DNA from: a virus
DNA: 27,885 nucleotides
Virus genome (UHGV): UHGV-1486778
Direction: 5' to 3' (one strand)
In this document: in pieces, positions 1 to 7,750 of the stretch
Layout: every line of letters begins with the position of its first letter
Position numbering within the stretch: the stretch's first letter is position 1
Notes under the pieces: model-generated
Told to the model about the DNA's origin: nothing
The model's input: only the letters and a program-made list of their open reading frames with translations
Database searches by the model: none
Made by a program: the position numbers and the translations under genes

Positions 1-286
1 GCACCAGACGGCGGTGATAGTTATCCGCGACCATTCCGGCATATCCCTTCAGGTTTGCGGCACTCGGACAGTTTTTGCTGGTCATCAGGATTGACGTGAA
101 ATTCTCCTCTCCGCACGCCTCGGCAACCATCAGCGCGTCGATTAGGTTTCTGTTTCTCGCCTGCTTCCGGATAACTTCGAAGGCTTTCCGGTAGAGCGGA
201 ATTGAAAACGCTTCCGGCTCCAGCATTGCCAGAACGAAAGGCGCGAACCAATTCAGAGCGGAACCATCGACGCATCGAGTCAGGCG

Positions 287-1291
287 ATGGATGAGCTTGT
301 AAATCGTCTTTCAGCCATCAGAAAACCCCGTGACGAGGTTAAACCTGTACGGTTAGGGGAAATCATCACCGACTACACTGACACGCTTGACAGGCGTCTG
401 AGGAACGGAGAAGAGTCAGATACCCTGAAGACCGGAATCGAAGAACTTGATGCCATCACCGGAGGGATGAACGCGGAAGACCTGGTGATAATCGCTGCTC
501 GTCCTGGTATGGGTAAAACCGAACTGGCGCTGAAGATTGCCGAAGGCGTTGCAAGCCGCGTTATTCCCGGTTCTGACGTCCGGCGCGGAGTGTTGATTTT
601 CTCGATGGAAATGAGCGCATTGCAGATTGCAGAGCGAAGCATTGCCAACGCCGGGAGGATGTCGGTTAGCGTGCTGCGAAACCCTGCATCGATGGATGAC
701 GAAGGCTGGGCGCGTGTTGCTAACGGCATGAGTCAGCTTGCAGATTTGGATGTATGGGTAGTCGATGCCTCGCGGTTATCGGTCGAAGAAATTCGCTCAA
801 TCGCAGAACGGCACAAACAGGAAAATCCAAACCTGTCACTCATCATGGCGGATTATCTTGGCCTGATTGAGAAGCCGAAAGCAGATCGCAACGACCTCGC
901 AATTGCTCACATCTCCGGAAGTCTAAAAGCGATGGCGAAAGACCTGAAAACGCCTGTTATCTCCCTAAGTCAGCTTTCGCGCGATGTTGAGAAGCGACCA
1001 AACAAACGCCCGACAAACGCAGATTTGCGTGATTCTGGAAGCATTGAACAGGACGCAGACTCAATCATCATGCTCTATCGGGAAGCGGTATATGACGAGA
1101 ACAGTAGCGCCGCGCCATTTGCTGAAATCATTGTGACGAAAAACCGTTTTGGCTCGCTTGGTACGGTTTACCAGCGGTTCTGCAACGGACACTTTGTTGC
1201 ATGTGACCAGGACGAAGCCAGACAGATTTGCACAGCATCAAATGCACCTGCTGCGCGTGGCAGACGATATGCACAAGGGGCTGACGTATGA
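287..1291 (+). CDS. DnaB-family replicative helicase, C-terminal RecA-like ATPase domain only (334 aa)
   Basis: Walker A motif [11 protein letters not shown], and DnaB-like [22 protein letters not shown] and [17 protein letters not shown] blocks. The frame has a stop at 203-205 and no start codon before 287, so the roughly 170-aa DnaB N-terminal domain is absent in frame. Confidence 0.8.
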
Positions 1292-1317
1292 CCATCTACA
1301 TCACTGAGCTAATAACA

Positions 1318-1348
1318 GGGGCTATTTACACAGTAGCCCTTTTTTATT
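1318..1348 (+). terminator. Rho-independent terminator, tR2-like position downstream of the replication gene
   Basis: Stem gggcta (1319-1324) pairs with tagccc (1334-1339) around a 9-nt loop, followed by ttttttatt. It lies 27 nt after the helicase stop. Confidence 0.6.
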
Positions 1349-1374
1349 GGATTAAGAGCGAGGGGTAAGTACCG

Positions 1375-1557
1375 ATGGTAAATGCATTTATTTGTAGTTT
1401 ATTTCTTGTCGCGATTTTTCATGGATTCCTTCTGATGATGAGTTTTGTTCTCTGGAATAATGGATATCGCATATTGGGAGTAGGTTTTGTTTTACGGTTT
1501 TCAGTCCTCTGCGCGTTGCTACCGATAATTATGGCGACTATCAAATATTATTGGTGA
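1375..1557 (+). CDS. Small hydrophobic protein (60 aa, about 2 predicted TM helices), unknown function
   Basis: ATG preceded by GAGGGG 6 nt upstream. The local sequence is AT-rich and the product is almost entirely hydrophobic. Occupies the ren/ninA slot of lambdoid phages. Confidence 0.4.
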   Translation: MVNAFICSLFLVAIFHGFLLMMSFVLWNNGYRILGVGFVLRFSVLCALLPIIMATIKYYW

Positions 1558-1572
1558 CCCAAAAAATCATCG

Positions 1573-1923
1573 ATGGAGAGTGATATGGACGAATCAAGAA
1601 AGCAGTTTGAAGAAAGTTGGTTGCGACGTGGAGGCGAATCTTCAGACCTTATCCGTTACCCTGAAAATCACCATGAAATTGGCAGCGGTAATATTGGTGG
1701 TCAATACGTGATGAACGATGTTCAAGGCCACTGGCAAACGTGGCAGGCATCGCGAGCAGCTTTTGAACTGGATATCGACTGGCCCGAATCGAATGACGAC
1801 TTTTGGAAAGATGGTGAAGAAGGTGCTTATGCGATGGGTTATGAGGATGGGCGTGACAAAACGATAATTGCAGTAATGAAAGCTATCAGAGCCGCTGGAA
1901 TTAAAGAGAAGAATTTTCGATGA
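1573..1923 (+). CDS. Acidic, Trp-rich hypothetical protein (116 aa; alternative start at 1585 with SD GGAGAG)
   Basis: Open frame whose stop overlaps the ninB start in ATGA at 1920-1923. About 23 Asp/Glu versus 14 Lys/Arg. No family recognised. Confidence 0.5.
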   Translation: MESDMDESRKQFEESWLRRGGESSDLIRYPENHHEIGSGNIGGQYVMNDVQGHWQTWQASRAAFELDIDWPESNDDFWKDGEEGAYAMGYEDGRDKTIIAVMKAIRAAGIKEKNFR

Positions 1924-2330
1924 AGCAAACAATCTTCCTCCGAACTAAGCAACAACAGCAAGCTGCAATAAATGCCATCCTCGCAACACCACTCGATAAA
2001 GACAAGCCAGTCACCATCCGCATTACTGACTACAAGCGCAACCTTGACCAGAACGCAAAATTTCACGCGATGGTCGCAGATATCGCTCGTCAGGTTCAAT
2101 GGTGCGGCAAATGGTTAAAACCGGAACAATGGAAGGTTTTGTTGATTAGCGGTCATGCAGTGGCAACAAACCTGGAAACTGATGTTTTGCCCGGGCTTGA
2201 AGGCGAATACGTCAACATTCGCGAAAGCAGCGCGCAGATGAGCGTGAAGCGCATGGCAAGTCTGATCGAGTACACAACAGCCTGGGCTATTGGTCAGGGT
2301 GTCAGATTTACCGACAGGAGGTACGAATGA
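1920..2330 (+). CDS. ninB: NinB recombination protein (Orf-family recombination mediator)
   Basis: 136 aa. Recalled similarity to lambda NinB (DQN...QVxWxGxWLxxExWK block) and position at the head of the nin region. Confidence 0.8.
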
Positions 2331-2503
2331 GACGACAGCGACGAAGTTTCACCGACATCATCTGCGAAAACTGCAAATACCTTCCAACGAAGCGCTCCAG
2401 AAACAAACGCAAGCCAATCCCAAAAGAATCTGACGTAAAAACCTTCAATTACACAGCTCACCTGTGGGATATCCGGTGGCTAAGACATCGTGCGAGGAAA
2501 TGA
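2327..2503 (+). CDS. ninE: NinE protein (58 aa)
   Basis: Translated by hand: [58 protein letters not shown], which closely matches NinE as I recall it. Absent from the ORF track because it is under 60 aa. ATGA overlap with ninB. Confidence 0.75.
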
Positions 2504-2865
2504 CAATGGATTATTCACAGTTAAGTGATTTTGAAATTAACAAGCGAGTGGCAATTTGCTGTGGATTTGCTCCCGAAGATTGCGAAATCGCAAAGTTGGG
2601 AACATCAATCGTTGGTGTTGAGTGGGATGACGAAACTGGTTATGCAATAAAAACGGTTGATTACTGTAAAAGCCCATCAGACGCAGAGCCGATTATCGTA
2701 GAGAACAGAATTGGAATTATTCCAGCACCAGAAAATGGATTATGGAAGGCAGCGCATAGAAAAGTTGGCGGTGATAGTACCCCATATCATATGACTCAAG
2801 ATGAAAACCCACTCCGCGCTGCCATGATTGTCTTTCTCATGATGCAGGACGCCAATAATGCTTAG
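2500..2865 (+). CDS. NinX-like protein (121 aa from ATG 2500)
   Basis: Located between ninE and ninF, as ninX is in P22-type nin regions. ATGA overlap with the ninE stop. The family call is by synteny only. Confidence 0.5.
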
Positions 2866-3034
2866 CCCATCCCAATCCATTCAATACCAGAAAGAAAGCG
2901 TCGAGCGAGCTTTAACGTGCGCTAACTGCGGTCAGAAGCTGCATGTGCTGGAAGTTCACGTGTGTGAGCACTGCTGCGCAGAACTGATGAGCGATCCGAA
3001 TAGCTCAATGTACGAGGAAGAAGACGATGAGTGA
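2858..3034 (+). CDS. ninF: NinF protein (58 aa, Cys-rich)
   Basis: Translated by hand: [58 protein letters not shown], which matches lambda NinF as I recall it. Under 60 aa, so not in the ORF track. Confidence 0.75.
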   Translation: MLSPSQSIQYQKESVERALTCANCGQKLHVLEVHVCEHCCAELMSDPNSSMYEEEDDE

Positions 3035-3239
3035 TTACCTGAAATGGTATCTCTGCCACCGCTGGTTAATTAAGTTTGCTGTAAAAGACTGGATGACAGC
3101 GGATGCCAACAAGCTTAAGCAAAGAAAAGACTATTACTACGCCAGAATGAAGGAAAACTACTGCTCAATTCGCACTCGCATATTTATTAAAAAAGACCTT
3201 CAGTCAATTCTTCAATTGCGAGGGAAGGTAAATGGCTAA
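3027..3239 (+). CDS. Hypothetical basic protein (70 aa)
   Basis: Open frame overlapping the ninF stop and the next start. AT-rich. No family recognised. Confidence 0.4.
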   Translation: MSDYLKWYLCHRWLIKFAVKDWMTADANKLKQRKDYYYARMKENYCSIRTRIFIKKDLQSILQLRGKVNG

Positions 3240-3522
3240 CCTACGCAAAGAAGCGCGCGGCAGAGAATGCCAGGTACGTATTTACGGCGTATGCAATGGC
3301 AATCCTGAAACTACAGTTCTGGCACATTACCGGATGGCTGGAATTTGCGGAACGGGAATGAAGCCTGACGACCTGATCGGCGCATGGGCTTGTAGCGCGT
3401 GTCACGATGAAATCGACCGACGCACCCATAATCTCGACAACAAAGACGCCAGACTTTACCACCTCGAAGGCGTGATCAGGACGCAGGCGATACTGCTGAA
3501 GGAGGGGAAGATTAAGTCATGA
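3232..3522 (+). CDS. YbcO-like (DUF1364) putative zinc-binding nuclease (96 aa)
   Basis: Cys/His-rich (CQVRIYGVCNG...CSACHDEID) and the same 96-aa length as the DLP12 prophage protein YbcO, which sits immediately upstream of rusA there as well. Confidence 0.65.
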   Translation: MANLRKEARGRECQVRIYGVCNGNPETTVLAHYRMAGICGTGMKPDDLIGAWACSACHDEIDRRTHNLDNKDARLYHLEGVIRTQAILLKEGKIKS

Positions 3523-3881
3523 ACGAATATCAGTTTGTGCTCCCATACCCGCCGTCGGTGAATACCTACTGGCGAAGACGGGGAAGCCAATATTACATAA
3601 GCGACAAAGGCCAGAAATACCGAAAAGACGTTCAGCAAATCATCCGCCAACTCAAGTTAGACATTTTCACCAAATCACGACTCCGTATCAAAGTCATCGC
3701 AGACGTTCCGGACTCCCGCCGTCGCGACCTCGACAACATCCTGAAAGGTTTACTCGACTCCCTTATCCACGCCGGATTTGCGGAAGACGACGAGCAATTC
3801 GATGACATTCGCGTAATTCGTGGCGTGAAAGTACCAGGCGGAAGGCTTGGAATAAAAATCACCGAACTGGAGAACGCATGA
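3519..3881 (+). CDS. rusA: RusA Holliday-junction resolvase
   Basis: 120 aa with PYPPSVNxYWRRRG and RRRDLDN(I)LKGLLDSL motifs characteristic of RusA. ATGA overlap with the flanking genes. Confidence 0.85.
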   Translation: MNEYQFVLPYPPSVNTYWRRRGSQYYISDKGQKYRKDVQQIIRQLKLDIFTKSRLRIKVIADVPDSRRRDLDNILKGLLDSLIHAGFAEDDEQFDDIRVIRGVKVPGGRLGIKITELENA

Positions 3882-4066
3882 ACGCCACAATTCAAACGAT
3901 ACCAGAGCTTCTTATCCAGACACGAGGCAATCAGACCGAAGTGGCAAGGATGCTTTCCTGCGCAAGAGGAACAGTGCTCAAGTACAACCGAGACAGCAAA
4001 GGCGAGCGTCACGTAATAGTTAACGGCGTCCTGATGGTCAAACAGGGCAAAAGGGGAAGGCCATGA
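3878..4066 (+). CDS. ninH: NinH (small HTH protein)
   Basis: 62 aa with GNQTEVARMLSCARGTVLKY...HVIVNGVLMV, matching lambda NinH as I recall it. Immediately upstream of Q. Confidence 0.7.
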   Translation: MNATIQTIPELLIQTRGNQTEVARMLSCARGTVLKYNRDSKGERHVIVNGVLMVKQGKRGRP

Positions 4067-4686
4067 GACTCGAAAGCGTAGCTAAATTTCATTCGCCAAA
4101 AAGCCCAATGATGAGTGACTCACCACGGGCTACGGCTTCTGACTCTCTTTCCGGTACTGATGTGATGGCTGCTATGGGGATGGCGCAATCACAAGCCGGA
4201 TTCGGTATGGCTGCATTCTGCGGCAAGCACGAACTCAGCCAGAATGACAAACAAAAGGCTATCAACTATCTGATGCAATTTGCACACAAGGTATCGGGGA
4301 AATATCGTGGTGTGGCAAAGCTCGAAGGAAATACTAAGGCAAAGGTACTGCAAGTGCTCGCAACATTCGCTTATGCGGATTATTGCCGTAGTGCCGCGAC
4401 GCCGGGCGCAAGATGCAGAGATTGCCACGGTACAGGCCGTGCGGTTGATATTGCCAAAACAGAGCAGTGGGGGAGAGTTGTTGAGAAAGAGTGTGGAAGA
4501 TGCAAAGGCGTCGGCTATTCAAGGATGCCAGCAAGCGCCGCATATCGCGCTGTAACGATGCTAATCCCCAACCTTACCCAACCCACATGGTCACGCACTG
4601 TTAAGCCGCTGTATGACGCTCTGGTGGTGCAATGCCACAAAGAAGAGTCAATCGCAGACAACATTTTGAATGCGGTCACACGTTAG
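4063..4686 (+). CDS. Q: Late-gene antiterminator Q (lambda-type)
   Basis: The 207-aa product matches my recollection of lambda Q essentially throughout, including the Cys cluster CRDCHGTGR...CGRCKGVGY, and it is followed by a lambda-type PR'/qut region. Confidence 0.9.
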   Translation: MRLESVAKFHSPKSPMMSDSPRATASDSLSGTDVMAAMGMAQSQAGFGMAAFCGKHELSQNDKQKAINYLMQFAHKVSGKYRGVAKLEGNTKAKVLQVLATFAYADYCRSAATPGARCRDCHGTGRAVDIAKTEQWGRVVEKECGRCKGVGYSRMPASAAYRAVTMLIPNLTQPTWSRTVKPLYDALVVQCHKEESIADNILNAVTR

Positions 4687-4728
4687 CAGCATGATTGCCA
4701 CGGATGGCAACATATTAACGGCATGATA

Positions 4729-4757
4729 TTGACTTTTTGAATAAAGTTGGGTAAATT
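4729..4757 (+). promoter_or_regulatory. Late promoter PR' with overlapping qut site (lambda-type)
   Basis: -35 TTGACT at 4729-4734, a 17-bp spacer, and -10 TAAATT at 4752-4757. The surrounding sequence matches the lambda PR'/qut region as I remember it. Confidence 0.7.
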
Positions 4758-4763
4758 TGACCC

Positions 4764-4957
4764 AACGATGGGTTAATTCGCTCGTTGTGGTAGTGAGATG
4801 AAAAGAGGCGGCGCTTACTACCGATTCCGCCTAGTTGGTCACTTCGACGTATCGTCTGGAACTCCAACCATCGCAGGCTGAGAGGTCTGCAAAATGCAAT
4901 CCCGAAACAGTTCGCAGGTAATAGTTAGAGCCTGCATAACGGTTTCGGGATTTTTTA
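4764..4957 (+). ncRNA. 6S-like short late leader transcript (PR' to tR')
   Basis: Runs from the inferred +1, about 7 nt past the -10, to the tR' hairpin and U-tract. Called by homology to the lambda late leader region. Confidence 0.5.
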
Positions 4958-4958
4958 T
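4899..4958 (+). terminator. tR' rho-independent terminator (substrate of Q antitermination)
   Basis: Arm atcccgaaac (4899-4908) pairs with gtttcgggat (4942-4951), with nested gcagg/cctgc pairing, followed by a T-run at 4951-4956. Confidence 0.7.
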
Positions 4959-5356
4959 ATCTGTGCAACAGGTAAGAGCATTCTCCCTTATGGGGCTTGG
5001 CTTAAATGCACCGAGTGCTCTTTCCGTTGTGCTGAATTAAGCGAATACCGGAAGCAGAACCGGATCAACAAATGCGTACAGGCGTCATCGCCGCCCAGCA
5101 ACAGCACAACCCAAACTGAGCCGTAGCCACTGGCTATCCTGAATTCATCAGTGATAGTTACGCTGCGGCCTTCTACACATGACCTTCGTGAAAGCGGGTG
5201 GCAAGAGGCTGCGCTAACAACCTCCTGCCGTTTTGCCCGTGCATATCGGTCACGAACAAATCTGATTACTAAACACAGTAGCCTGGATTTGTTCTATCAG
5301 TAATCGACCTTATTCCTAATTAAATAGAGCAAATCCCCTCAATGAAGGGGTAGAGC

Positions 5357-5560
5357 ATGTACCGTATGGACAAAATCAGAGAATGGTTCAGTTACAGCTT
5401 CGGAGGACTGACTGCGATGGGTGGCATTCTCTCCCTGAATGACTGGGCTGTCATCATTGGTATTCTTTGTACTGTCGGCACATTTGGCATCAACTGGTAC
5501 TACAAGCGCAAAGAGCGCGAGGACAGATTGAATGGCAATGTCACCGGCACTACGAAATAG
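5357..5560 (+). CDS. Holin, class II pinholin-like, with dual-start motif (M1-Y-R-M4)
   Basis: 67 aa with two TM segments, the first Gly/Ser/Ala-rich and SAR-like. Two in-frame ATGs at 5357 and 5366 are separated by a basic residue. It sits immediately upstream of, and overlaps, a SAR endolysin gene. Confidence 0.75.
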
Positions 5561-6035
5561 CGTAATAGCGGCGATAAGTGGCGGGGCTATTGCTATAGCA
5601 TCTGTGTTAATCACTGGCCCAAGTGGTAACGATGGTCTGGAAGGTGTCAGTTACATACCATACAAAGATATTGTTGGCGTATGGACTGTATGTCACGGAC
5701 ACACCGGAAAAGACATTATGCTCGGTAAAACGTATACCGAAGCAGAATGCAAAGCCCTCCTGAATAAAGACCTCGCCACCGTCGCCAGACAAATTAACCC
5801 GTACATCAAAGTCGATATACCGGAAACAACGCGCGGCGCTCTTTACTCGTTCGTTTACAACGTTGGTGCTGGAAATTTCAGAACATCGACACTTCTTCGC
5901 AAAATAAACCAGGGCGATATCAAAGGCGCATGTGATCAGCTACGGCGCTGGACATACGCTGGCGGTAAGCAATGGAAAGGGCTGATGACTCGCCGTGAGA
6001 TTGAGCGTGAAGTCTGTTTGTGGGGGCAACAATGA
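5532..6035 (+). CDS. SAR endolysin (T4-type lysozyme, GH24) with N-terminal signal-anchor-release domain
   Basis: Weakly hydrophobic Gly/Ala-rich N-terminus ([20 protein letters not shown]) followed by a lysozyme-like domain ([11 protein letters not shown]...[12 protein letters not shown]). Confidence 0.85.
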
Positions 6036-6475
6036 GTAGAGTAACCGCGATTATCTCCGCTCTGGTTATCAGCATCATCGTCTGCCTGTCATGGGCTGTT
6101 AATCATTACCGTGATAACGCCATGACCTATAAAGAACAGCGCGACAAAGCCACATCCATCATCGCTGACATGCAGAAGCGTCAACATGATGTAGCTGAAC
6201 TCGACGCCAGATACACAAAGGAGCTTGCTGATGCTAACGCGACTATCGAAAGTCTTCGTGCTGATGTTTCTGCTGGTCGTAAGTGGCTGCACGTCAAAGC
6301 AGTCTGTCCGGACAAGCATAAAACCACCGCCGCCTCCGGCGTGGATGATGCTTCCAGCCCCAGACTTACTGACACCGCTCAACGGGATTATTTCGTTCTC
6401 AGAGAGCGCATCGAAACCATAACTAACCAATTGAATGGCCTGCAAGAATATGTGAGATCACAGTGTTCATATTAG
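6032..6475 (+). CDS. Rz: Rz-type inner-membrane spanin (i-spanin)
   Basis: N-terminal TM helix followed by a coiled-coil-like periplasmic domain. The start overlaps the endolysin stop in ATGA. Contains an embedded Rz1-type gene in the +1 frame. Confidence 0.75.
6231..6422 (+). CDS. Rz1: Rz1-type outer-membrane lipoprotein spanin (o-spanin), embedded in Rz
   Basis: SD AAGGAG 8 nt upstream of ATG 6231. Signal peptide with lipobox LVVSGC, and a Pro-rich mature part ([10 protein letters not shown]). Lies entirely inside Rz in the +1 frame. Confidence 0.7.
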
Positions 6476-6888
6476 AAAAGTCTTATCATAAGATTTTTGT
6501 ATATGGATGCATTATGTCTCAATACGCTCACGTTGCTTTAATCGCTTATCATTTGGTGGCTGATAGCTCAATGACTCCTCGTGATGCATGGGATGCAGCT
6601 ATCGCAGAGGTTACAGAAAGCGAATCGTCAAGAAAGAAGATATGCCCAAGGGCAACATTTCTCGCCCTGGCGGATAGCGGTTACCTGAAGAATGTAAAAC
6701 CACTGCATGGGGAGAAAAAAGGCGGTAAGTTGTACCAAAGGGCAATTGAAGTTGCGAATCTGATTCTTGATTTACCCGGAATCAGTAAAGCTGAATTGGT
6801 TGATAAAACTGGTTACAAAGACAGGCAAGGGTCTTATGACCTGATTCTCGCTCTGTATCATCATGAGCAACTCCAGCGATCGGAATAA
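6463..6888 (+). CDS. Hypothetical soluble protein (141 aa from GTG 6463; 124 aa from ATG 6514)
   Basis: Long open frame in the AT-rich block between Rz and the HNH gene. No recognisable motif. Confidence 0.5.
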
Positions 6889-7005
6889 TTATCCCAGCAT
6901 CAGTGTCAAAAATAGGCAGTGATACGCTATTTTCCTGAAAATACTTTACTAACATTTTATGAGAATTATCCTAGTAATGTGTTTATTTAAAAGGAGTTTG
7001 GGTTT

Positions 7006-7209
7006 ATGAAAATTCTCTGGGTCATCAGTCTTTTGTGTAGTGCTATTGGATTTATTGAAGGAATCCTCGGGGTTTTCGGTGCTCAGAGTGCTCCACAACA
7101 GGCTGCAGGTGCAGCAATGGGAGTAGCATGGGCAGTTATTCCATATTGTATTTGTCGTGCTATCCAACAATTGCGCCCTCGAGAAGTCATTATTAAAAAG
7201 GAAGAATGA
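7006..7209 (+). CDS. Small membrane protein (67 aa, 2 predicted TM helices), unknown function
   Basis: Strong SD AAGGAG 8 nt upstream of the ATG. Hydrophobic Gly/Ala-rich core and a charged C-terminus. Its stop overlaps the HNH start in ATGA. Confidence 0.55.
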   Translation: MKILWVISLLCSAIGFIEGILGVFGAQSAPQQAAGAAMGVAWAVIPYCICRAIQQLRPREVIIKKEE

Positions 7210-7625
7210 CCAGATCTTATCCGGTGTTTTTTCTGTCTAAGCCTCGCGTCGCGGGGCTTTTTATTGGAGCCAGCATGCCACCACGAACCCCAAAAGCCTG
7301 CCGTGTTCGCGGCTGCCGCCATACCACAACTGACCCGTCAGGCTATTGCGAAAGCCACAAAAGTGAAGGCTGGAAGCAATACAAGCCGGGCCAGTCCAGA
7401 CACCAGCGCGGTTATGGTTCGAAATGGGATGTTATCCGTGAACGTGTGCTCAAGCGTGACAAAGGACTGTGTCAGTTATGTCTGCGTGGTGGTGTGGTAC
7501 GTGAGGCGAAAACCGTTGACCACATCATCCCTAAAGCGCATGGCGGCACTGATGCCGACAGCAATCTGCAGAGCCTGTGCTGGCCGTGTCATAAGGCGAA
7601 GACGGCCCGTGAACGGTTGAAGTAA
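7206..7625 (+). CDS. HNH endonuclease, terminase-associated (alternative start at 7275)
   Basis: HNH motif DHIIPKAHGGTDADSNLQSLCWPCHKAK and a Cys cluster CRVRGCRH...CESH. Sits immediately upstream of the small terminase, as in HK97-like cos phages. Confidence 0.85.
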   Translation: MTRSYPVFFLSKPRVAGLFIGASMPPRTPKACRVRGCRHTTTDPSGYCESHKSEGWKQYKPGQSRHQRGYGSKWDVIRERVLKRDKGLCQLCLRGGVVREAKTVDHIIPKAHGGTDADSNLQSLCWPCHKAKTARERLK

Positions 7626-7750
7626 GAACCAGTTCCCACTGCCAGAGGGGAGGGACGGGTCAAATCCCTGTGACCTGACGTCTTCCGGACTGCCCGCCCC
7701 ATCGTTTTTTTATACCCGCGAAAAATGAAATTTAACCAGGAGTGCCGCAT

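Follow-up and report, generated by a model that had tools for sequence, protein, structure and literature searches.

We analyzed the viral genome UHGV-1486778, a stretch of 27,885 nucleotides (nt) referred to here as the window (one strand, positions counted from its first letter), in which two small genes lie between the lysis and packaging modules of an SfI-like lambdoid prophage of the Escherichia coli/Shigella type. The first, open reading frame (ORF) A, encodes a DUF6979 protein predicted to be soluble, and the second, ORF B, encodes a small membrane protein; they are two separately acquired accessory genes and not one module. By the anatomy of its sequence, ORF B is a self-contained moron (approximately 6940–7265) with a putative promoter, a Shine-Dalgarno (SD) sequence and a terminator. 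We considered this architecture as a whole, that is, the reality of the genes, their independence, the moron anatomy, the dispensability of the slot and the start of the following HNH endonuclease gene, to be highly probable. Superinfection exclusion is proposed, by analogy with known phage proteins, as a tentative function of ORF B. The complete explanation, in which two separate accessory genes comprise an ORF B moron with an exclusion role and a late-expressed ORF A, has in our judgment not quite an even chance of being correct.

A reading of the window from its sequence only (the sequence-only reading) had described an AT-rich insert carrying two cargo genes between the lysis and packaging modules, and both points held. 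Two plus-strand ORFs were found between Rz and HNH, in the order holin (essD type), endolysin (rrrD type), Rz/Rz1, ORF A, ORF B, HNH, cos, P27-family small terminase and large terminase. The GC content was 0.31 in the 117-bp spacer between the two ORFs, 0.44 in ORF B, 0.45 in ORF A and 0.405 in the unit 6940–7265, against 0.49 in the lysis genes and 0.56 in the HNH and terminase genes, and this deviation supported an insert. The same reading had taken the site for an accessory or moron slot, and the comparison with related phages agreed with it: in SfV the HNH gene begins 26 bp past Rz1, leaving the slot empty, the SfIV slot of approximately 290 bp has no annotated gene, and in ST64B two unrelated genes occupy it. 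The slot is dispensable for the phage. The cohesive-end sequence of phage SfI, which was determined by experiment (PMC3636060), is present in the window past the HNH gene; therefore, ORF A and ORF B occupy the far right end of the genome in the virion.

The distribution of the two genes showed their independence. Among 5426 complete Escherichia coli genomes, DUF6979 was present in 248 and ORF B in 52, and approximately 196 of the 248 DUF6979 genes were without ORF B. When 80 viral contigs encoding an ORF B homologue were fetched, 62 of the loci had no adjacent DUF6979 gene; the 18 in which DUF6979 adjoined were all of the E. coli/Shigella type, with ORF B 99–100% identical. DUF6979 without ORF B occurred in ST131-type, ECONIH2-type and other E. 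coli prophages, in which a 60-amino-acid (aa) minus-strand gene follows DUF6979, and in Salmonella prophages, in which a KilA-N gene does so. ORF B without an adjoining DUF6979 gene was found in Enterobacter, Morganella, Ewingella, Pantoea, Buttiauxella and Pseudomonas contexts. In an Enterobacter-type prophage (locus L004), both genes were present but were separated by approximately 2.2 kb with the lysis cassette between them, DUF6979 lying past Q beside a colicin-immunity-like gene and ORF B past the spanin gene. Clustering of the neighboring ORFs around ORF B revealed no constant partner gene. The earlier suggestion that the soluble and the small membrane protein form one module was thus not supported by the counts.

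These data also bear on a functional module, in which the two proteins would be an exclusion or abortive-infection pair, or ORF B a defence protein and the late DUF6979 protein its self-immunity, as in Tai/Ati of phi80. Tai/Ati is a defence/counter-defence pair whose immunity hotspot directly precedes the packaging module (PMC11364771). The combination of a gene having a putative promoter of its own with a Q-dependent late gene in the same genome region resembles this layout, in which one gene is expressed in the lysogen, as is presumed for ORF B, and its neighbor belongs to the Q late operon; in addition, our two genes adjoin each other in approximately 52 E. coli genomes and in SfI. However, co-occurrence was the exception in the counts given above, the pair was confined to one closely related lineage, the two genes do not co-occur consistently, and the genes of L004 flank the lysis cassette. 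Tai is a soluble, divergently oriented protein of 26 kDa, and when 50,697 phage records were searched by tblastn with ORF A and ORF B, phi80 was not among the hits, so that neither protein matches it. We therefore regarded a shared module as distinctly improbable.

ORF B matched the phrog_12304 hidden Markov model, a PHROG without an assigned function, with an E value of 2.1e-44 over positions 1–67 of 67. Its 45 close homologues were of constant length and belonged to Enterobacterales. The ratio of nonsynonymous to synonymous substitution rates was approximately 0.09, and the changes were mostly at third codon positions; ORF B is a real protein-coding gene under strong purifying selection. In both the GenBank and the RefSeq record of SfI it is unannotated (NC_027339, 37695–37895), though it is called in E. 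coli by the Prokaryotic Genome Annotation Pipeline (PGAP). An exhaustive profile search with ORF B gave 1056 clusters, defined at 50% identity, at E ≤ 0.001 and 130 at E ≤ 1e-10, and this broad family spanned Proteobacteria, including Xanthomonadales and Caulobacteraceae, as well as Bacteroidota and Acidobacteriota.

The prediction of a 67-aa protein with two transmembrane (TM) segments agreed with the AlphaFold2 model, a hairpin with a predicted local distance difference test score (pLDDT) of 87 and helices at residues 2–24 and 29–56. Three elements made up the family signature: G15, the turn sequence [SG]APQ[QE]AA, and VIPYC toward the cytoplasmic end of helix 2, with P46 and Y47 invariant; helix 2 also contained small-xxx-small packing motifs. 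Positive charges were found at both termini of ORF B, and because relatives carry zinc-ribbon fusions at either terminus as well, an N-in/C-in topology was predicted, in which the protein would lie in the inner membrane with both termini in the cytoplasm. The hairpin relatives in question (P0098, P0099, P0127, P0144 and P0159) have cytoplasmic zinc ribbons of the DZR and UPF0547 types at the N- or the C-terminus, and within a wider domain family that has no name, the hairpin may act as an anchor or a sensor in the membrane. No Pfam, NCBIfam or PADLOC family matched ORF B above noise, PDB sequence profiles gave no match, and a Foldseek search of BFVD gave none at E ≤ 0.001. A Pfam T4SS_pilin match scored 13.9 bits (E 0.059), below the cut-off of 26.6, and was rejected as hydrophobic-hairpin noise. 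The ORF B family is named in no domain database, being clustered by PHROGs only and having no Pfam entry. The expectation of an undescribed function was consistent with these results, since ORF A and ORF B both belong to families without an assigned function and had no PADLOC, PDB or informative fold match.

To define the transcription unit, 62 unique flanks from the 80 viral contigs were aligned, and the 52 that were not of the E. coli type were used for conservation. The segment GCTTTACTAAA, which holds the -35 hexamer, was at least 90% conserved, and TTTATCCTAAT, which holds the -10 hexamer, was 87–99% conserved, whereas the 11–12 positions between the two blocks were only 40–70% conserved at constant length. 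The putative promoter matches the consensus at 8 of 12 positions; because of this low match, a simple promoter scan listed no plus-strand promoter in the spacer, and the promoter was thus called from its conservation. The strong SD attributed to this gene was confirmed, the block AAAAGGAG being at least 90% conserved, and the promoter-like character ascribed to the 117-bp spacer gained a phylogenetic footprint, if one with a modest consensus match.

Past the ORF B stop codon and before the HNH start, a stem of 9 bp with six G-C pairs (7239–7259) is followed by a T-run. The stem GCCTCGC/GCGGGGC and the T-run were approximately 99% conserved, and the loop varied freely (GT, AAAA, GAAA, GTAA, TTAT and others); in L064 and L066 an alternative stem was still paired. 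Folding of the whole 7205–7280 RNA was no better than that of shuffled sequences (z -0.45), and the terminator was therefore called from the local hairpin, the T-run and their conservation. The promoter blocks, the SD and the terminator move with ORF B into non-homologous flanks. Two hexamer blocks at fixed spacing, and a conserved stem with a free loop, are what a working promoter and a working terminator would be expected to leave as a footprint. By the published definition (Juhala et al. 2000; PMC3594210), a moron is extra DNA of deviating composition with its own promoter and terminator. The ORF B unit is extra DNA between otherwise adjacent genes, has its own terminator and deviates in composition. 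In one locus, L016 (3358–4571; E. coli O39:NM F8704-2), an insertion sequence of the IS3 family has entered the ORF B unit at its 3' end; the match ends at query 315 of 373, corresponding to 7204 of the window, and PGAP annotates no ORF B there.

The locations of the ORF B relatives were then compared. In 57 of the 80 viral loci, the gene was preceded by a lysis marker and followed by a terminase marker, with varying families on both the lysis side (holin_8/holin_3_7/CHAP, lambda-type R and several Rz types) and the packaging side (P27 small terminase subunit (TerS) with HNH, DUF1441 with GpA, and Nu1-like with GpA-like). More distant relatives, matching phrog_12304 at E 1e-15 to 4e-18, were located in tail modules. 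They directly followed the tape-measure gene in Morganella elements (the 800-aa neighbor being phrog_2276) and in Edwardsiella phage Edno5 (gp18/gp19), where the relative also adjoins the Arc/Ant block, and directly preceded it in Pantoea (L115, L190, L218 and L219). In many Pseudomonas-type contigs and in Buttiauxella, they stood between gpK-like and gpI-like tail genes together with the small lipoprotein gene phrog_914; such lambda-like tail modules were seen in L117 (3540–4126), L119 (4001–4923), L222 (3965–4989) and, similarly, in L191–L246. The relative and the phrog_914 lipoprotein may constitute a two-layer envelope moron. A tblastn search with the Pseudomonas-type relative against the GenBank phage set found nothing, possibly owing to low-complexity masking. 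In L219 (721–1767), the gene after the relative encodes a membrane protein of the T4 Imm family, "immunity to superinfection" (phrog_1039, E 3e-20), and the 1016-aa ORF that comes after this gene resembles a tape-measure protein; the arrangement looks like a small exclusion gene cluster. Stand-alone copies were also present in chromosomes: in Rouxiella they are flanked by lpxM-like and pykA-like genes, and in Ewingella they adjoin icd.

The proposal of superinfection exclusion was drawn from this position beside tape-measure genes, tail lipoproteins and an Imm-like gene, together with the precedent of HK97 gp15, T4 Imm and P22 SieA; in addition, a recognized immunity hotspot lies upstream of the packaging module (PMC11364771). 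In the proposed mechanism, ORF B would be transcribed from the repressed prophage via its own promoter, as the complete promoter, SD, gene and terminator anatomy suggests it should be, and Q-modified late transcription would read through the ORF B terminator. As an N-in/C-in helical hairpin inserted in the inner membrane, the product would block a membrane step of incoming phages, namely DNA entry mediated by tape-measure or ejection proteins. We thought it rather unlikely, going further, that ORF B is the first examined member of a large, unnamed family of two-helix membrane domains forming a new and widespread class of phage-borne inner-membrane exclusion factors, which would jam DNA entry mediated by tape-measure or ejection proteins, with the late-expressed DUF6979 protein of the SfI lineage as a possible self-protection or counter-defence partner.

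As summarized in PMC3594210 (Cumby et al. 2012), HK97 gp15, the first moron, is a YebO-like small inner-membrane exclusion protein whose gene lies beside that of the tape-measure protein. ORF B resembles it in being a single small gene between conserved phage genes with its own terminator and a putative promoter of its own, in encoding a predicted small membrane protein with bacterial chromosomal homologues, and in having relatives at the same kind of site beside the tape-measure gene. In contrast, there is no sequence relationship, ORF B having no match to YebO or any other Pfam family; gp15 has an N-terminal anchor and ORF B a two-helix hairpin; and the gp15 gene is in the tail operon, whereas ORF B of the window is at the lysis-cos junction. 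T4 Imm and P22 SieA are likewise small inner-membrane proteins, encoded by phages or prophages, that block DNA entry (PMC10883804). The likeness to Imm consists in the phrog_1039 gene adjoining the ORF B relative of L219, and that to SieA in the setting of the Edno5 relative, between an injection-related tail gene and the Arc/Ant block. This setting is comparable to that of P22 sieA, which adjoins immI. However, ORF B matches no phrog_1039, Imm or SieA model, and SieA has three TM segments in approximately 162 aa. In a search for all of these exclusion families (gp15/YebO, Imm and SieA), nothing rose above noise in Pfam, PHROG, NCBIfam or PADLOC, and no PDB sequence matched.

Several points weigh against an exclusion function. 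ORF B has no homology to known exclusion or defence proteins in PADLOC, Pfam and NCBIfam, in which only sub-threshold noise was obtained. The 1056 clusters, the zinc-ribbon fusions and the chromosomal copies could be the sign of a general membrane function unrelated to phages. Expression of ORF B in the lysogen is deduced from a putative promoter with a consensus match of 8/12, and the Edno5 homologue overlaps the stop codon of the tape-measure gene and may be a late gene there. As for the accompanying ORF A, its tight and conserved linkage to Rz, described below, could indicate a lysis-related role and not hitch-hiking.

The most substantial alternative is that ORF B acts on the host as a lysogenic-conversion gene, modulating a transporter, a sensor or an envelope machine, or conferring a stress or virulence benefit. 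Lambda bor, which exemplifies this logic, is an accessory gene that is expressed in the lysogen and is dispensable for lytic growth. It occupies the same genome position as ORF B, past Rz and before cos; however, Bor is a lipoprotein of the outer membrane and its gene lies on the opposite strand, whereas ORF B is co-oriented with the late genes and its hairpin is predicted for the inner membrane. The N-terminus of ORF B, MKILWVISLLCSAIGF, is the first hairpin helix, with no L-x-x-C lipobox context and no match to the Bor family. The moron anatomy fits a host function equally well, and the stand-alone copies of Rouxiella and Ewingella, the spread of the family over Proteobacteria, Bacteroidota and Acidobacteriota with some members fused to cytoplasmic zinc ribbons, and the small-xxx-small motifs of helix 2, which suit binding to another membrane protein, are consistent with it. 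On the other hand, the recurrent tape-measure, lipoprotein and Imm-like neighbors fit a phage-phage conflict better, and no co-occurring host partner gene was found. We considered an action on the host doubtful.

Superinfection exclusion therefore remained the preferred, if tentative, function of ORF B. Morons are the main route by which temperate phages change their hosts, and most have no known function. Among them, ORF B is an unusually clean case: its unit of 330 bp carries the footprints of a promoter and a terminator and occurs in many phage backbones, at both lysis-cos and tape-measure sites. Should ORF B prove to exclude phages, the few known inner-membrane injection blockers would gain a new family, and the passage of DNA across the inner membrane could be approached through escape mutants; otherwise, ORF B would be one more lysogenic-conversion gene. 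The finding itself is of an ordinary kind, accessory cargo in a known hotspot, and its edge lies in a compact, widespread and testable exclusion candidate.

The sequence-only reading had given ORF A as a soluble protein of 124–141 aa with no recognizable motif. The 124-aa form, starting at ATG 6514, was supported, because all family members begin with MSQY, MNKY or MGNY and RefSeq and PGAP agree on this start. The 141-aa form was rejected, since its GTG at 6463 lies inside Rz and the homologues, RefSeq and PGAP all use ATG 6514. The protein does have a recognizable family, though one without an assigned function: it matched Pfam DUF6979 (PF22399) with 99.1 bits (E 2.6e-28; residues 1–120 on profile positions 1–126 of 127), against a gathering score of 27 bits, and phrog_5039 at E 8e-69, and PGAP names it "DUF6979 family protein". 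By these profile scores, ORF A is a plain member of an already named family, PF22399. It had 51 homologues. The invariant residues were W26, A29, K42, C44, P45 and G56, with the motif S-E-S-S-R-K-K-G-C-P-R-x-T-F-L. The AlphaFold model (pLDDT 92) had seven helices and matched no viral structure in a Foldseek search of BFVD at E ≤ 0.001, and no PDB sequence matched. PADLOC and NCBIfam profiles gave sub-threshold noise only, for ORF A and ORF B alike, and DUF6979 was not mentioned in the literature searched. No promoter of its own was seen for ORF A, which is therefore probably read from the Q-dependent late transcript; it would be carried along behind the lysis cassette, 38 bp past Rz, and be transcribed with the late operon. 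ORF A may have a lysis-linked, an anti-defence or a regulatory role, and these data do not separate them.

The Rz-to-ORF A junction was highly conserved. The 38-bp spacer was identical or nearly so across six E. coli prophages and phages, and the DUF6979 start was always 38 bp past Rz in E. coli and Salmonella prophages, whatever the type of holin, endolysin or terminase. The last 35 nt of Rz together with the spacer (6440–6513) showed 97–100% identity between E. coli and Salmonella, against 61–66% identity of the Rz and DUF6979 proteins. To judge from its sequence, this block with its palindrome could be a recombination linker at a module boundary or a putative binding site. It also favors a further explanation, in which one or both genes are lysis accessories, DUF6979 acting at the spanin or endolysin step and ORF B tuning the timing of lysis like a holin or antiholin. 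Elsewhere, more distant DUF6979 genes stand behind other lysis cassettes, and most viral ORF B loci (57 of 80) lie between lysis and terminase markers. As modeled, ORF B looks like a class II holin or pinholin, with two TM helices, an N-in/C-in topology and a charged C-terminus. It differs from these in its position past Rz, its own putative promoter and terminator, and the lack of a dual start and of a holin family match. SfV is without both genes and the SfIV slot is unannotated, yet both phages have a holin, an endolysin and spanins, and the window already contains a holin (essD type), an endolysin and Rz/Rz1. Moreover, ORF B also occurs in tail modules and in chromosomes far from lysis genes, and DUF6979 also upstream of the lysis cassette (L004) and in non-phage loci resembling defence islands. 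A lysis function was thus judged improbable, and a toxin role of ORF B was likewise ranked below exclusion and an action on the host.

A packaging role, with DUF6979 as a DNA-binding factor associated with cos or the terminase, or with ORF B coupled to HNH, was judged very improbable. Both genes do adjoin HNH, cos and TerS. However, the coupling that had been proposed, in which the stop codon of the small gene overlaps the HNH start as ATGA, was refuted: the ATG at 7206 is not the HNH start, which is at 7275, past the terminator. A 139-aa HNH ORF was discarded because the PGAP/RefSeq start, the onset of homology and the profile alignment all favor 7275; homology to SfV, SfII, 720R4, SKA5 and others begins at query 126, corresponding to 7275, and the HNH profile aligns only from residues 19–22 of the longer ORF. 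The genes were found with four packaging systems (P27 TerS with HNH, Nu1-like with GpA-like, DUF1441 with GpA, and Terminase_3), SfV has the same HNH, terminase and cos without either gene (PMC3636060), and distant DUF6979 members are not in phages. The earlier alternative that ORF B is a lysis or packaging accessory therefore appeared unlikely, its relatives being in tail modules, in chromosomes and beside four terminase types. Three entries of the local gene map were corrected accordingly, namely the starts of DUF6979 and HNH and the terminator that separates ORF B from HNH (Table 1).

Table 1. Coordinates of the features in and around the two accessory genes of the window
Feature	Position	Strand	Description
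ORF A	6514..6888	+	124-aa soluble all-alpha protein (predicted); Pfam DUF6979 / phrog_5039; co-oriented with the late operon
ORF B	7006..7209	+	67 aa, predicted two-helix membrane hairpin; phrog_12304; PGAP WP_000699783.1
Putative sigma70 promoter of ORF B	6945..6973	+	-35 TTTACT 6945–6950, 17-nt spacer, -10 TATCCT 6968–6973; conservation footprint
Shine-Dalgarno AAGGAG of ORF B	6991..6996	+	9 nt 5' of ATG; read from the sequence
Intrinsic terminator	7239..7264	+	AAGCCTCGC-GTC-GCGGGGCTT + T-run; terminator scan
Rz-to-DUF6979 spacer	6476..6513	+	38 bp; contains the perfect palindrome TCTTATCATAAGA (6481–6493)
Holin gene	5357–5560		present in the lysis cassette of the window
Rz spanin gene	6020..6475	+	PF03245 match, E 2e-39; annotated "lysis protein"/Rz; context
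HNH endonuclease gene	7275..7625	+	PGAP/RefSeq start 7275; context
cos cohesive end	7691..7700	+	TGCCCGCCCC; single exact match in the window; context

Region 6400–7300 of the window was 100% identical to Shigella flexneri phage SfI (NC_027339, 37089–37989) and 98–100% identical to prophages of approximately 52 complete E. coli genomes. Nevertheless, the window differs from SfI as a whole: a tRNA scan gave no match in it, as did an Rfam scan, whereas SfI has two tRNA genes between Q and the holin gene. The left part of the window (1–6400) is mosaic, with 96–97% identity to the replication, nin and Q regions of the HK97/Gally/Kapi1 type, and SfI-like sequence extends from Rz onward.

Distant DUF6979 members also occurred 3' of other lysis cassettes, and homologues of approximately 30% identity were found in non-phage metagenomic loci resembling defence islands. 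In L023/L024 (5400–7291), the homologues were near Dnd-associated, SMC-like, DEAD helicase, GIY-YIG and HepT/MNT genes, and in L025 (2611–9548) near three TIR proteins and restriction genes of the Eco57I and XhoI types. The near-identical Enterobacter-type prophages L003 (302–3035) and L004 (2379–3035) differed just downstream of Q, where L003 has a pyocin-S/DNase bacteriocin gene with its immunity gene, and L004 has DUF6979 in place of the bacteriocin with the same kind of immunity gene. In most E. coli DUF6979 prophages, ORF B is replaced by the gene for the 60-aa soluble protein (WP_001205136), which has no PHROG match; it was located at 3474–3656 of L013 on the minus strand, and also in L014, L015, L018 and many of L147–L177. 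This gene is divergent inside the late operon, an arrangement that recalls the "noncontiguous operon" layout of phi80 tai.

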